This document shows positions 28,703 through 32,961 of a DNA stretch of 64,000 bases, piece after piece. Location: the NCBI GenBank assembly GCA_009777935.1, contig WRKU01000006.1:7249-71248 (forward strand), written 5' to 3'. The notes below the pieces were generated by a model. The model searched no databases, was not told the DNA's origin, and saw only the letters and a program-made list of their open reading frames with translations. The first letter of the stretch is position 1. Each line of letters opens with the position of its first letter. This DNA comes from Coriobacteriia bacterium (GTDB lineage Bacteria > Actinomycetota > Coriobacteriia > WRKU01). A program made the translations under genes and the position numbers.

Positions 28703-28794
<92 letters not shown>

Positions 28795-28963: not shown

Positions 28964-29058
28964 GGAGGGATGGCAGAGTCTGGTTGATCGCACTAGTCTT
29001 GAAAACTAGCAGGCGGGTATCCCCCGTCTCGTGGGTTCGAATCCCACTCCCTCCTCCA
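28964..29058 (+). tRNA. tRNA-Ser(TGA)
   Basis: GGAGGGA/TCCCTCC acceptor, CTAGT-CTTGAAA-ACTAG anticodon arm, long variable arm, T73-CCA. Confidence 0.96.
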
Positions 29059-29081: not shown

Positions 29082-29363
29082 TTAGAACTTGGATAAGTAA
29101 ATATCGCCTCTCTTGCCGATCTTTACTACCAATATCCTGAAACACCCGTCTTGAATATCGGCAATAAGACGATATTTCCCAACTCTATAGCGCCATAAGT
29201 TTTTGTACTCGCCCTCTAGGGCCTTACCGAACAAGCGGGGATTTTCGCAACCTTGGATGTTGGAATCCAGCCACTTGAGTATCCTCTTCTGAACCGGTCT
29301 GTCGAGTTTCGAGAACTGTTTTTCAGCCTTGGTGTCAAAACTCCAGCTATATTCTCTAGGCAT
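29082..29363 (-). CDS. relE: RelE/ParE family toxin
   Basis: KLDRPVQKRI, NPRLFGKAL, LWRYRVGKYRLI, GKRGDIY. Confidence 0.93.
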   Translation of the reverse strand: MPREYSWSFDTKAEKQFSKLDRPVQKRILKWLDSNIQGCENPRLFGKALEGEYKNLWRYRVGKYRLIADIQDGCFRILVVKIGKRGDIYLSKF

Positions 29364-29571
29364 ACTTCTTGAGCATTTCTTCTCTTGATATAGCCCTGTT
29401 GTTCTCTTTGAGCACCGTCATAGCATCATGATAGTCCTCTTCATCTTGAATCTTCTCAGACAGCAGCTCAACGATAAAAGCATTTAGCGAGAGGTCATGA
29501 AACTGTGCCTCTTCCTTTGCGCGACTGAGTAAATCTTCGCTCATTCGTATTGAGGTACTTACCGTTGGCAT
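29356..29571 (-). CDS. RHH antitoxin (RelB-like, DUF6290-type)
   Basis: STSIRMS N-terminal strand, acidic EDEEDY segment; overlaps toxin start; AAGGAG RBS. Confidence 0.85.
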   Translation of the reverse strand: MPTVSTSIRMSEDLLSRAKEEAQFHDLSLNAFIVELLSEKIQDEEDYHDAMTVLKENNRAISREEMLKKYA

Positions 29572-29608
29572 AGCTTCACTCCTTAGCAACGAACTCGTCT
29601 CTGAGCCA

Positions 29609-29643: not shown

Positions 29644-30303
29644 CTACATCACTACGTACAGCAAGATTGCAAAGAAGTGCAGGAATGTGCCCAGCAGCAC
29701 CCACACATGAAAGACCGAGTGGAAGTAACGGACCCGCTTGATGACGTAAAAGATAGTGCCAACCGAATAAGAAATACCGCCTGCTAAAAGCAGCCATAGG
29801 GCAGTCGGCGGAAGCAAGCGTATCATATCGGGAATGACCCACACGGCCATCCAACCCATGACGAGGTAAATCACGACGCTCACCCACTTGGGGCGAAAGA
29901 CCCACAGCGCCTCGGTCGCCATGCCGAGCACCGTCATGCCCCACAGAACACCGAAGAGAACCCAGCCGCCATCATGGCGCAAGGTCACGAGACAAAACGG
30001 CGTATAGGTCCCGGCGATGAGCAGGTAGATGCTCGCGTGGTCGAGAATTTTGAAGATACGCTTGGCGCGCTCGTTGGTGAGGCTGTGATAGAGCGTCGAG
30101 CTCAGATAGAGAGCAATCATCGCCAGACAGTAGACGATGGAAGCGGCAATCTTGTAGCCACGATCGACCTCGGAAAAGCTCGCAAATATGAGGAGTGTGG
30201 GCAGCGCCACAATGCCGAGCACCACACCAATACCGTGCGAAACGCTGTTGGCAATCTCCTCGCCCAGCGTATACTGCTTGATTTTTTCGGCAAGACGTGT
30301 CAT
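29644..30303 (-). CDS. Hemolysin III/PAQR family membrane protein (TrhA-like)
   Basis: EEIANSVSHG, SSTLYH, DHASIYLLIAGTYTP, HSVFHVWV. Confidence 0.95.
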   Translation of the reverse strand: MTRLAEKIKQYTLGEEIANSVSHGIGVVLGIVALPTLLIFASFSEVDRGYKIAASIVYCLAMIALYLSSTLYHSLTNERAKRIFKILDHASIYLLIAGTYTPFCLVTLRHDGGWVLFGVLWGMTVLGMATEALWVFRPKWVSVVIYLVMGWMAVWVIPDMIRLLPPTALWLLLAGGISYSVGTIFYVIKRVRYFHSVFHVWVLLGTFLHFFAILLYVVM

Positions 30304-30319
30304 GAGTTACTTTAGCATA
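30284..30319. repeat. Left part of the duplicated tatD-end/hlyIII-start junction
   Basis: Matches 32154-32189 with 1 mismatch. Confidence 0.9.
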
Positions 30320-30782
30320 TTGGAAGTCGGAGTTCATCTTAATTTCATCTTACTAGTAGCGTCTATCCCAAGATTTTGTAGCGAGAGGCTCGGACGAAGC
30401 GTGTCGCAAGCACCCGAGCCTCCGCATTCCCTTTTTCGCCGACGTCTCCCGCCCATGTCGGGCATACGCTACGCGAAAGGATATGAGTTCCCTTACCTGC
30501 TCTCTGTATGCCGCTTGGCATACACTCCCTGGCATAGTCCACTTCGCTTGGAAGGGTCTTGCGGGTAAGTCTGGACGCACGCCACGCGCATCGGTGGCAG
30601 CATTGCCCCCCACGGCCCCATTGTTGTCCACGCGAGCCGCCTGAGTGGCATTCGTGCCCGGAGACCGCAGCCACTGGTGGTACCAGATAGCGGCGGAAAA
30701 CCGCTCTGCTCTGGTGCGCCGTAACTCACTCCTACGACCACGCTGTTTGTCCCGTAGCCGCACCGCTAGTGTAACAGATGTA
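30320..30782 (-). mobile_element. Orphan DGR-like non-coding core (TR/VR-like repeat 30566-30685 plus structured spacer), no RT in window
   Basis: Translates to WYHQWLRSPGTNATQAARVDNNGAVGGNAATDARGVRPDL (C-type-lectin/DUF6273-type VR/TR motif), followed by CTTACC..GGTAAG, TTTCGC..GCGAAA and GAGGCTCGG..CCGAGCCTC stems; splits a direct repeat. Confidence 0.7.
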
Positions 30783-30845
30783 ATGTGCGTGCATTTTGCT
30801 CAAGAGCGCGGAGTACTTCATCGCGCGGTTCGGGACGAACGTCGG
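30783..30845. repeat. Right part of the duplicated junction (copy of tatD 3' end)
   Basis: Matches 32192-32255 with one indel and one substitution. Confidence 0.9.
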
Positions 30846-30850
30846 TATCG

Positions 30851-32173
30851 CTACACAATCGACCTGCTCAGAGGTCGAAGTTCTTTTAGTTTTCCAAGCA
30901 ATATCATAGCGATAGGTATGAGAGACATTTCGAGAAAGAAAGCCGTTCGACTTCCCGACGTAAATATCGTAGGAGAAAACGCCATCATGAATCGAGAGAG
31001 AACTCCTGCCGAAAATATAATCGCCACGAATCCGTACTCATATCTCTCCTCAAAAATTCTGTACAGAATATACAGGATGGCCCCTAGGGCAAAAAGCGTT
31101 ACCGCGATACAGGCAAAATATTTGAGGCGATACAGGTTCAAGAAGGGTATTATGTCACCTCCGCTCAGGGCTTCGTAGTGCAAGAATCCGTAGTCTAAGT
31201 AAAAGAGCTGGAGCTTTGGCACCATCACGGCCAGCACTAAAAGGGCAATCGCTAAGCCTTTAGCAACGATCTCTTCTCTTTTTTGAAATATCGCCAATGC
31301 TATGAGTCCCAAGAGTACGACAAGCATCCCATTGAGTGCGCCAAACCATATTTCGCCCACCCTGTATATGCCCAGCGTCGTTTTGTCAATCAGAGACAAT
31401 GAGTCGAAATCGGGAAACCGTGCGCCGATTTCCCATAACAGTCTGCGGGCGTTACCCGGTGCCTGCAGATGAAACACTAGCATGGAAACCGATACAATCA
31501 AATACAGCATGATCCCCGCATGTATTTTTTTCTTATCAATAAACTCGTAAATCGCAAGCACCACTAAAAATCCCGTTAGAATAAGAGCCATCTGCTCGCT
31601 ATTTGCTGCGTACAATAGACAGGGAATGGCAAGTAGATAGTACCACCATTTTACCGGCTGTTCTTTGATGATCATCTTAATAGGTATCATGCTTGCCAGA
31701 CCTAAAGCTAGCACCCAGAGATAGTTGAGCGTAGTTGCAGCCCATCCCGCCTCGCCCATCACATTAATCGGATAGAGCATCAACATGAAAGTTAAAAGAT
31801 AGTTTATCTTCAAGTCATTTTTCGGGTTAAACAATCTATTGAACCCGAACCAGAGCAAAACCATCATCGCCCCATTCAGGATCTTGAATAGGAAGGAAGT
31901 AAGGAGGAGTACATTTACCAAAACGGCCTCTATAAGTACTCTACTCGTCCAGCTATTATATCGGGACATCACATATTCTATAAAGTTTCTATTATGAAGG
32001 ACGGCACCGAACACCAAATCGTCGCCGAAATCTATGTGCACTCTGAAAAACTGAAGAAGTATCACATAGACGATAAAGATGAGAAGCGGAACGTACGCCA
32101 AGGTATAGCAGTATCGCGAAGAAGTGCGAAAAATGTGCTGAAGCTGTTTAGTCTTTTCGGCAAGATGTGTCAT
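30851..32173 (-). CDS. DUF6056-like polytopic membrane protein (putative GT-C glycosyltransferase)
   Basis: GDD, WTSR, GWAATTLNYLW, APGN..R, SPT motifs; low GC; first codons copied from the hlyIII start. Confidence 0.8.
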   Translation of the reverse strand: MTHLAEKTKQLQHIFRTSSRYCYTLAYVPLLIFIVYVILLQFFRVHIDFGDDLVFGAVLHNRNFIEYVMSRYNSWTSRVLIEAVLVNVLLLTSFLFKILNGAMMVLLWFGFNRLFNPKNDLKINYLLTFMLMLYPINVMGEAGWAATTLNYLWVLALGLASMIPIKMIIKEQPVKWWYYLLAIPCLLYAANSEQMALILTGFLVVLAIYEFIDKKKIHAGIMLYLIVSVSMLVFHLQAPGNARRLLWEIGARFPDFDSLSLIDKTTLGIYRVGEIWFGALNGMLVVLLGLIALAIFQKREEIVAKGLAIALLVLAVMVPKLQLFYLDYGFLHYEALSGGDIIPFLNLYRLKYFACIAVTLFALGAILYILYRIFEERYEYGFVAIIFSAGVLSRFMMAFSPTIFTSGSRTAFFLEMSLIPIAMILLGKLKELRPLSRSIV

Positions 32174-32181
32174 GAGTTACT

Positions 32182-32961
32182 TTAGCATACTATGTGCCGT
32201 GCATTTTGCTCAAGAGCGCAGAGTACTTCATCGCGCGGTTCGGGACGAACGTCGGCGATTATCTCGGCAACATAACGTACATTCGCAGGTTCATTCTTTG
32301 TGCCGCGCACAGGCTCGGGTGCAAGGAAGGGACAATCGGTTTCGGTTAAGATACGGTCGAGCGGGATACGTGCCGCAGCATCGCGTACTTCGTCGGCCTT
32401 CTTGAACGTTATCGGCCCGGCAAAGCTCACGTAACAACCCAGCTCGAGGAAGGGAGCGGCGGTTTCATAATCGCACCCGAAGCAATGCAAGATGGCACGT
32501 TCGCCCGGATAGCCGCTTTCCTGCAGAATACGTAGGCCGTCTTCGTGCGCTTCACGCAGATGAATACAGACCGGTAGGTTAAGCTCTGTAGCGAGTGCCA
32601 GCTGTTCTGCAAAGACTTTACGTTGCACATTGCGCGGCGAATGGTCGTAGTGATAATCAAGGCCCATCTCACCCAGCGCAATAACACGAGGGTCGGTAGC
32701 ATACTCACGAATGCGCTCAACCACTGCTGCATTGGTTCTGGCGGCGGCATGAGGATGAGTACCAACGATAATGTAAACCTCAGGTACTTTACCAGCTTCT
32801 GCTTGCCATTGGTCAAGCCCCTCAAAGGTACGCTCTGGCTCTTCGAGCACATTCACAACCGTACAAATGAGCCCCACGCCAGCCTCACCGGCGGCACGTA
32901 ACGCTGCCGCTGGATCGGCAAGCATATCAAGGTGCGCGTGCGTATCAACGTACATTGTCAT
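32182..32961 (-). CDS. tatD: TatD family hydrolase
   Basis: DTHAHL, GEMGLDY, HLREA, HCF, ETDCPFLAP. Confidence 0.95.
   Translation of the reverse strand: MTMYVDTHAHLDMLADPAAALRAAGEAGVGLICTVVNVLEEPERTFEGLDQWQAEAGKVPEVYIIVGTHPHAAARTNAAVVERIREYATDPRVIALGEMGLDYHYDHSPRNVQRKVFAEQLALATELNLPVCIHLREAHEDGLRILQESGYPGERAILHCFGCDYETAAPFLELGCYVSFAGPITFKKADEVRDAAARIPLDRILTETDCPFLAPEPVRGTKNEPANVRYVAEIIADVRPEPRDEVLCALEQNARHIVC

Follow-up and report, generated by a model that had tools for sequence, protein, structure and literature searches.

The 64,000-nucleotide stretch analysed here, referred to as the window, spans positions 7249-71248 of contig C6 in a metagenome-assembled genome (MAG) of a Coriobacteriia bacterium, and on its minus strand it carries an insert of ~460 bp (30320-30782) that interrupts one copy of a ~110-nt direct repeat. 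We propose that this insert is a stand-alone gene for the template RNA of a diversity-generating retroelement (DGR), that it is one of at least 13 such genes served in trans by a single pair of reverse transcriptase (RT) and Avd, and that their target is a surface-protein gene split between the starts of contigs C6 and C10; we put the probability of this reading at about 0.6. DGRs are understood to consist of one invariant template repeat (TR) and one or several variable targets, and the stability of the template is a core tenet of that understanding. In the genome described here, the TR-like segments of the cassettes show an adenine-specific hypervariability that is confined to the part homologous to the variable repeat (VR) of the target gene. 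All of our evidence is computational and comes from this one MAG (1,106,534 bases in 21 contigs, 86% complete, 1% contamination).

A family of template-like cassettes with a conserved RNA structure

A BLAST search of the genome with the insert returned 11 further cassette-type places at 77-88% identity, sharing a unit of ~390 nt, along with two places that match just the middle of the element, and this recurrence of the unit argues that the cassette is not a chance sequence. A motif scan and a covariance model agree on 11 full copies and one truncated copy in the genome (Table 1). When a metagenome collection was scanned with a 27-nt spacer motif, two more copies were found on the short contigs L121 and L122 and on no other contigs; at one of its ends each matches C21 or C7 perfectly (100%) over 126-127 nt, and both therefore overlap contigs of this same genome. 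At least 13 full cassettes are accordingly distributed over at least seven contigs, and what the original prediction had described as a lone orphan cassette is a member of a dispersed family. Cassette DNA was found in none of 40 relatives and in none of 400 genomes from the phylum, and the spacer covariance model matched none of 150 genomes of the class, all of these being samples that give no proof of absence.

The family alignment defines a unit with a fixed order of parts, beyond which the flanks are unrelated between copies: a TGYTACACTAG box, a leader of ~75 nt, a 128-nt TR-like segment, and ~190 nt of conserved sequence that closes in a long hairpin. The box is present in all 13 full copies and in the truncated copy, and its TGYTACACT portion is a putative extended -10 promoter element from which the cassettes may be transcribed, although a simple scan for sigma-70 promoters and terminators made no call on the cassette strand, box included. 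Within the leader, the window copy reads AGGAGTGAGTT where 10 of the 11 aligned copies carry AGGAATGAGTT, and the GRYGCRC-type stretch that follows is GGCGCAC in the window copy and GACGCAC in most others. An open reading frame (ORF) on the minus strand from 30763 to 30353 runs through the insert and translates as ...AAIWYHQWLRSPGTNATQAARVDNNGAVGGNAATDARGVRPDLPARPFQ..., just as had been read from the sequence alone. Frames across the cassette TRs nevertheless measure only 48-148 aa from stop to stop and share no conserved start, and for this reason we regard the cassettes as non-coding and place the VR in a gene. The short MNSDFQ start that had been noticed at the insert edge belongs to a 121-aa ORF (29972-30337) that overlaps the HlyIII-family gene in another frame, and we take it to be spurious.

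Downstream of the TR-like segment, the conserved sequence has the character of a structured spacer RNA. It comprises a three-way element closed by ACTTACC...GGTAAG, a hairpin with compensated changes, a TTTCGC...GCGAAA helix bearing a variable hairpin, and a terminal hairpin of 16-17 bp. The stems first proposed for the window copy (CTTACC/GGTAAG around GTATGCC-AAGC-GGCATAC, TTTCGC/GCGAAA, and GAGGCTCGG/CCGAGCCTC) are present in its sequence, in its single-sequence fold and in the alignment fold. Our covariance model of the spacer (R1) matches the window at 30426-30570 with 151 bits, and the 11 full genomic copies score 144-156 bits. In a 13-copy spacer alignment, 99.2% of 519 cells are paired, compared to 37-52% when the partners are slid by one to three columns; seven of 40 pairs are changed on both sides (25 cells), and the covariation score was reached by none of 500 shuffles. 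One spacer hairpin, for instance, alternates between GUGUAUGC/GCAUACA and GUACGUGU/ACACGUA types. Over the whole unit, RNAalifold predicted 114 pairs from 11 copies, among them an 11-bp leader-spacer helix with 10 of its 11 pairs invariant, in which AGGAATGAGTT would pair with AACTCAT(A/C)TCCT (spacer partner AACTCATCTCCT), and a second helix in which the leader stretch (most commonly GACGCAC) would pair with GTGCGTC at the 3' end of the TR.

This layout corresponds to that of an experimentally defined core DGR RNA, which in the sections of the two reports concerned consists of 20 nt upstream, a 134-nt TR and a 140-nt spacer, both flanks being required (PMC6182149; PMC12875486). The match lies in an upstream flank, a TR of ~130 nt and a spacer that correspond part by part. 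In that system, cDNA is primed from A56 of the spacer at G117 of the TR, according to the same portion of the first report (PMC6182149).

A single RT-Avd pair and a probable surface-protein target

The genome contains one RVT_1 match, a 381-aa ORF on contig C10 (C10:2392-3537), and the absence of an RT from the window itself, stated in the original prediction, is therefore confirmed. The best solved relative of this ORF is the 328-residue chain 8ub7_A (E 3.6e-23), which we take to be the Bordetella phage bRT from the paper on the bRT-Avd-RNA structure, followed by the maturase reverse transcriptase 6me0_C (E 3.4e-07). RTs of the DGR clade carry the motif [I/L/V]GxxxSQ, and the LGNQSSQ of our ORF aligns to IGSLTSQ of 8ub7_A. 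Relatives of the RT among 300 genomes of the class are 28-36% identical to it; none was found in 14 other genomes of the same order. Just upstream of the RT gene, and overlapping its start, lies an avd gene encoding 182 aa (C10:3537-4085). The protein matches NF033474 (DivGenRetAVD) weakly, at E 0.0072 and under the curated cut-off; phmmer gave 33 relatives, every one of which matches that family at E <= 0.001. It also aligns over its full length with Avd from a canonical relative (25% identity). A single-sequence AlphaFold model gave four helices with a poor pLDDT of 46.7, a word-based homologue search with the protein recovered only itself, and a profile of its relatives reached Bbp7 (4dwl_A) among solved structures at E 0.2 only.

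In four related canonical DGRs from other phyla, whose RTs, the nearest in other genomes, are 32-37% identical to ours, a TR-like repeat sits ~150-290 nt upstream of the RT gene, and one such locus (L046) has the order target, avd, TR, RT. No cassette or TR was found beside the RT on C10: none of the 12 matches to the spacer model falls on that contig, and the overlap of the avd and RT genes leaves no gap.

The sole long ORF of the genome that matches the cassettes is found at C6:3-1631 on the minus strand, where 543 aa are read before the frame is cut off by the contig start at ...AAQWLHQWLRSPGTSATTAARVDGNGTVVGDST; contig C10 opens with IWYNQWLRSPGNAATTAARVNITGAVAGDIAATNVRGVRPALWVR and then a stop. 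These two VR halves (C6:12-105 and C10:1-126, the latter ending ...GVRPALWVR and a stop) are 84-85% identical to the TR of the window copy, and the homology begins at TTCCGCCGCT and ends at GGCGTGCGTCCAG, which are the exact borders of the TR. Upstream of these 128 nt the gene has coding sequence and the cassettes have their leader, and downstream the two are completely different, so that the context of the flagged segment is indeed that of a TR with its spacer and not that of a gene end, with non-coding flanks common to all copies. Both VR halves terminate contigs and disagree in their overlap, which is what a hypervariable region does to an assembly; we infer that they belong to one gene, whose VR sequence, pieced together from two contig ends, may combine several variants. 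With a DGR RT, an Avd and a homologous VR in an ORF of more than 543 aa, the genome contains the partners that the original prediction had placed outside the window. If the two contig starts are joined, the local order is the cassette at C6:2436-2792, the target gene with its VR, an RNase HII gene, a DUF4143 ATPase gene on which the RT and avd genes converge, and the RT-Avd pair itself, ~2.3 kb from the VR. The position of the RNase HII gene (C10:171-956, plus strand) between the end of the VR and the RT-Avd pair could be a coincidence, or the enzyme could be a helper that removes template RNA from cDNA. At ~300 nt upstream of the start of the target gene there is a 59-nt remnant (C6:1927-1985, minus strand) that resembles the terminal hairpin region of the cassettes and is 77% identical to the window copy.

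Over its N-terminal ~320 residues, the target protein is 36-46% identical to several paralogues, which together form a family of membrane-anchored surface proteins. The target, incomplete at the contig end, had no Pfam match. A second, longer type of variable C-terminus (class 2; ...WWSRSRG..AT.AG.V...G.V.GSWG...GLRPALWVR and a stop) is carried by 21 long ORFs of 485-923 aa on C1, C4, C5, C7, C8, C9, C11, C14, C15, C17 and C18, for example C9:45728-47842 and C7:57715-59670, the first of which matches PF19789 (DUF6273) at E 0.04 and 14.2 bits, below the cut-off of 23.5 bits. When the tails of nine of the 21 were aligned over 168 columns, only one of 25 majority-A columns was invariant, the invariant columns of C, G and T numbering 24, 36 and 23; in the 150 nt upstream of the tails, 13 of 33 A columns were invariant and third codon positions varied most. 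Class-2 tails therefore also look adenine-mutagenised. No non-coding template for them was found in the assembly, all 22 strong nhmmer matches lying inside the 21 long ORFs. One class-2 paralogue (C18:14744-14910, minus strand) lacks the ...GLRPALWVR end, its frame continuing into unrelated sequence as if interrupted. In a distantly related canonical DGR (L042; 9715-9794 and 11305-11384), the TR ends ...CGTCCAGAT and the VR ends ...CGTCCAGCT, and the A-to-C difference after CCAG in this pair also separates our cassettes (CCAGAC, RPD) from their VR (CCAGCC, RPA).

Adenine-specific variability and how it may arise

Among 11 aligned copies, 19 of the 21 majority-A columns of the TR are variable and two invariant, compared to 29 variable and 74 invariant columns of other majority bases (Fisher p 1e-07). 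The same count in the spacer gives 25 invariant and 14 variable majority-A columns alongside 76 and 65 others (p 0.28), and in the leader six and seven alongside 23 and 25. Variable TR columns, counted over 12 copies, number 21, 19 and 10 at codon positions 1, 2 and 3. The impression that the window template is already adenine-mutagenised therefore holds for the family, in which adenine columns vary in the TR and are mostly fixed (25 of 39) in the spacer. The cassettes hold two to seven AAY codons among 41-43, and the window copy, with four, sits inside this range; its count had been given correctly, on a denominator of 40 codons where the TR frame has 41, and its singling out as specially poor in AAY was not borne out. 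TR distances between pairs of cassettes do not track those of the spacer (r 0.07, reached by 660 of 2000 permutations) and partly track those of the leader (r 0.34, 20 of 2000). This pattern fits replacement tracts that cover TR and leader and leave out the spacer, which is the direction of DGR cDNA, and ordinary gene conversion could produce the same tracts.

On the reading we favour, the cassette RNAs would be used in trans by the lone RT-Avd pair on C10, whose recruitment would fall to the spacer, judging from the Bordetella phage system. Copying into cDNA would begin at the TR 3' end and proceed towards the leader with misreading of adenines, and the product would replace the VR at the 3' end of the surface-protein gene. 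The cassettes themselves appear to have received adenine-mutagenised sequence, since their TRs differ from one another almost only at columns that bear adenine; such sequence may have reached them as cDNA homing from cassette to cassette, or the VR may have supplied it through gene conversion, either direction of transfer being a matter of conjecture. The outcome would be a library of alternative templates, presumably still in use, in place of one fixed template. A more elaborate version, in which RT-Avd rewrites both the surface gene and, through mutagenic homing from cassette to cassette, the templates, so that a library of a dozen or more evolves beyond adenine positions while toxin-antitoxin (TA) modules protect the array from deletion, is one that we regard as doubtful.

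Several observations weigh against our interpretation. No parent TR from which the window copy or the VR differs at adenines only, as the original prediction would have it, was found: in 24 cassette-VR pairs there are 11-29 mismatches each, of which adenines account for 7-53%. Modelling the C10 VR half by dynamic programming as a mosaic of 12 donors with one base left free gave incompatible sites and switches of 0 and 4 for A, 0 and 7 for G, 2 and 5 for C and 2 and 4 for T, so that A does just slightly better than the others and the model does not discriminate. The copy at C6:5069-5432 has a 1-nt deletion in its TR, and since some cassettes keep just two AAY codons, some may be decaying. One and the same alignment served to derive the spacer structure and to count its pairs, so that the paired percentage is inflated and the double changes are unaffected, and the single-sequence fold of the element is no better than shuffles (z -1.4). 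An Rfam scan of the insert at permissive thresholds returned just a chance miRNA match (E 3.6), and the spacer model, applied around 80 related RT genes of other genomes, gave one match at E 0.9 that we take as noise; the likeness to DGR RNA is accordingly one of architecture, not of demonstrated homology. DNA flanking the VR folds no better than shuffles (z -0.35) and forms no convincing stem-loop, VR and TR sharing GGCGTGCGTCCAG and then diverging. Finally, a canonical TR could sit in the part missing from this incomplete MAG.

The alternatives share much of this evidence and part from our reading at different points. It is unlikely, in our estimate, that a single template does the work, most probably the cassette at C6:2436-2792, and that the others, the window copy included, are inactive, slowly decaying copies spread by recombination along with TA modules. 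That cassette is the nearest to the target, ~800 nt upstream on the same strand, and the closest to the C10 VR half (11 mismatches in 122); one copy is frameshifted by its deletion, another is truncated, and AAY codons are down to two in some. Such decay is hard to reconcile with uniformly high scores to the spacer model in all 11 full genomic copies, with helices preserved by compensatory changes, with long stretches that are invariant in every copy and with TR indels that stay in frame in 10 of these 11, and even the nearest cassette retains six non-adenine mismatches to the VR. In systems of silent-cassette antigenic variation such as pilS/pilE, vls and msp2, one expressed gene is accompanied by many unexpressed partial copies of its variable end, and our cassettes might likewise pass sequence to the surface-protein gene through RecA-type gene conversion, in the manner of pilS/pilE and vls, with no part for the RT. 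The same arrangement is seen here, the VR can be described as a cassette mosaic with four switches, and C4:48944-49312 shares the codons GAC ATT GCT, in a non-adenine state, with it. Donors would not need ~265 nt of structured flanks kept by covariation, nor a promoter-like box; to our knowledge, the cassettes of pilS/pilE, vls and msp2 lack structured RNA flanks, an RT and any bias for adenine. The concentration of variability at adenine columns and the presence, ~2.3 kb from the VR, of a DGR RT-Avd pair that lacks a template of its own further make this explanation quite improbable.

A mobile or recombination-site element unrelated to DGRs, of the integron-attC or miniature inverted-repeat transposable element type, that captured a VR fragment and gathers TA genes would account for the alternation of cassettes and TA modules on C7, for the TA-type genes within 1 kb of nine of the 13 full copies and for the clean insertion of the window copy. 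Its edges, though, show no visible terminal inverted repeats or target-site duplication, and adenine-specific variability confined to the VR-homologous segment is foreign to such an element, which leaves it very improbable on what is a weak test that included no search for an integrase. The scenario that the original prediction itself had set against its proposal, a 3' remnant of an ordinary DUF6273-type gene copied around the genome, is close to refuted. Three full copies do lie right after paralogous surface-protein genes, one copy with a 12-codon end remnant, and against this stand the short TR frames without a conserved start, the limitation of the homology to 128 nt, the common non-coding leader upstream that is unrelated to the target, and a downstream sequence unlike that of the true VR.

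Viewed as a multi-template DGR, the system is a variant on known DGRs. It resembles that of Bordetella phage BPP-1 (avd-TR-spacer-brt with the VR in mtd), as far as the published passages at hand describe it, in an RT of the I/LGxxxSQ type, an Avd, a TR of ~130 nt with a structured spacer of 140-190 nt, an upstream flank (required in BPP-1) and a 3'-terminal VR in the gene for a receptor-binding-type protein. It differs in that no TR separates avd from the RT gene, the two genes overlapping, and in that the TR-spacer is a separate gene with a conserved upstream box, present in at least 13 copies that differ at adenine columns; in sequence or model, its spacer showed no similarity to Rfam families or to other DGR loci, as covered by the 80 related RT genes. 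With DGRs of the Treponema denticola type it shares a cellular, non-phage setting and many paralogous surface proteins with C-terminal variable domains, but there, in the accounts consulted, the targets are multiplied and remote and a single TR sits beside the RT, whereas here it is the templates that are multiplied and remote. Remote and multiple targets are well documented in the relevant part of one paper (PMC5758913), and several TRs per person in metagenomes are ascribed to several strains in the corresponding part of another (PMC4891356); that a DGR can act on targets at a distance is accepted (PMC5758913; PMC4891356). More than one template-like repeat per RT has a precedent in Stenotrophomonas sp. 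SKA14, with two TRs, and in Pseudomonas costantinii, with six 'unique TRs' that are called atypical (PMC6642488). In these cases software assigned the TRs inside one locus, some of them showing substitutions at bases other than adenine, and the passages of that paper devoted to them describe no separate TR-spacer RNA genes, conserved spacer structure or adenine-specific TR divergence (PMC6642488). Literature searches on multiple TRs returned nothing that describes TR-spacer genes dispersed in a dozen copies or templates that diverge specifically at adenines, although the supplementary tables of PMC5758913 and PMC6642488 may list multi-TR DGRs.

Should our reading be correct, the template and spacer would form an independent, multi-copy RNA gene whose copies differ at the very positions that the RT mutagenises, an RT-Avd pair would be able to serve many template RNAs in trans, and the sequence space within reach of a DGR would widen to non-adenine positions and length variants. 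Software for finding DGRs that requires a TR near the RT and adenine-only mismatches would miss or misread such a system. The 13 natural spacer variants, with their compensatory changes, could serve as a data set for the RNA features that RT-Avd needs.

Surroundings of the cassettes and of the window insert

Pfam-recognised TA-type genes near the cassettes comprise ParE, Phd/YefM, RelB, PIN, HEPN, nucleotidyltransferase, Fic and HicB-like families, and on C7 the alternation of cassettes with TA pairs has a spacing of ~1 kb. The sites at which the two occur together are C7:52804-56208, C14:3092-3858, C11:45500-45925, C6:4368-5203, C4:48146-48580, L122:558-1600 and, in the window, that of the ParE/HicB-like pair (Table 1); their TA genes are Phd/ParE (twice), RelB, PIN (twice), HEPN with nucleotidyltransferase (twice), Fic, and ParE with a HicB-like gene. 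The modules have no homology to one another at the DNA level. Chromosomal integron arrays are stabilised by toxin-antitoxin cassettes, and a repeated element that alternates with TA modules, as here, may similarly be guarded by them against deletion between repeats. Unlike in integron arrays, the repeat here is ~390 nt long and contains a TR, and no attC-type site was recognised, an integrase not having been searched for. The three full copies that follow surface-protein genes lie directly 3' of paralogues ending ...GLRPALWVR(QAP) and a stop, and the 12-codon remnant of such a gene end is retained just upstream of one copy.

The direct repeat at the window insert is split as had been described, each half being matched in the intact copy (Table 1): the halves are 8 nt apart in the unsplit copy (32144-32255) and 468 nt apart in the split one, and comparison of the two by eye places the insert at ~30777 to 30320. 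A relative of the same family has a gene other than TatD upstream of HlyIII (BLASTP E 45), and with synteny lost an empty-site comparison there is uninformative.

Table 1. Coordinates of the cassettes and of features in and around the window insert. Positions with a contig prefix refer to contigs of the genome, all others to the window.
Feature	Position	Strand	Remarks
Box TGTTACACT	30768-30776	-	5' edge of conserved unit
Leader, ~75 nt	30699-30773	-	hairpin, then AGGAGTGAGTT, then GRYGCRC-type stretch
TR-like segment, 128 nt (TTCCGCCGCT ... GGCGTGCGTCCAG)	30571-30698	-	18 adenines, 4 AAY codons
Spacer-like structured RNA, ~190 nt	30381-30570	-	conserved stems and covariance model
AT-rich 3' tail of insert	30320-30380	-	not common to other copies
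Full copy (window copy)	C6:37568-38030		
Full copy	C6:2436-2792		
Full copy	C6:5069-5432		
Full copy	C11:46206-46580		
Full copy	C7:53745-54113		
Full copy	C7:54882-55258		
Full copy	C7:55826-56208		
Truncated copy	C7:52804-53016		
Full copy	C14:2683-3024		
Full copy	C4:48944-49312		
Full copy	C17:1506-1845		
Full copy	C9:47883-48221		
Right half of split direct repeat	30274-30319	-	5' start of HlyIII gene; counterpart 32144-32189, 89% match
Left half of split direct repeat	30788-30845	-	duplicated TatD 3' end; counterpart 32198-32255, 98% match
ParE/HicB-like toxin-antitoxin pair	29082-29589	-	
HlyIII-family gene	29644-30303	-	
DUF6056 membrane protein gene	30851-32173	-	
TatD hydrolase gene	32182-32961	-	

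The DUF6056 gene is flanked by the two copies of the ~110-nt repeat, in which the 3' end of TatD is joined to the 5' start of HlyIII, and the N-terminus of its product (MTHLAEKTKQ) resembles that of HlyIII (MTRLAEKIKQ); the gene looks like an insertion with duplication of the junction. Two tRNA-Ser genes, with anticodons GGA and TGA, are located beside the ParE/HicB-like pair at 28703-28794 (minus strand) and 28964-29058 (plus strand), ~1.3 kb from the cassette, and may mark a hot spot for island integration.

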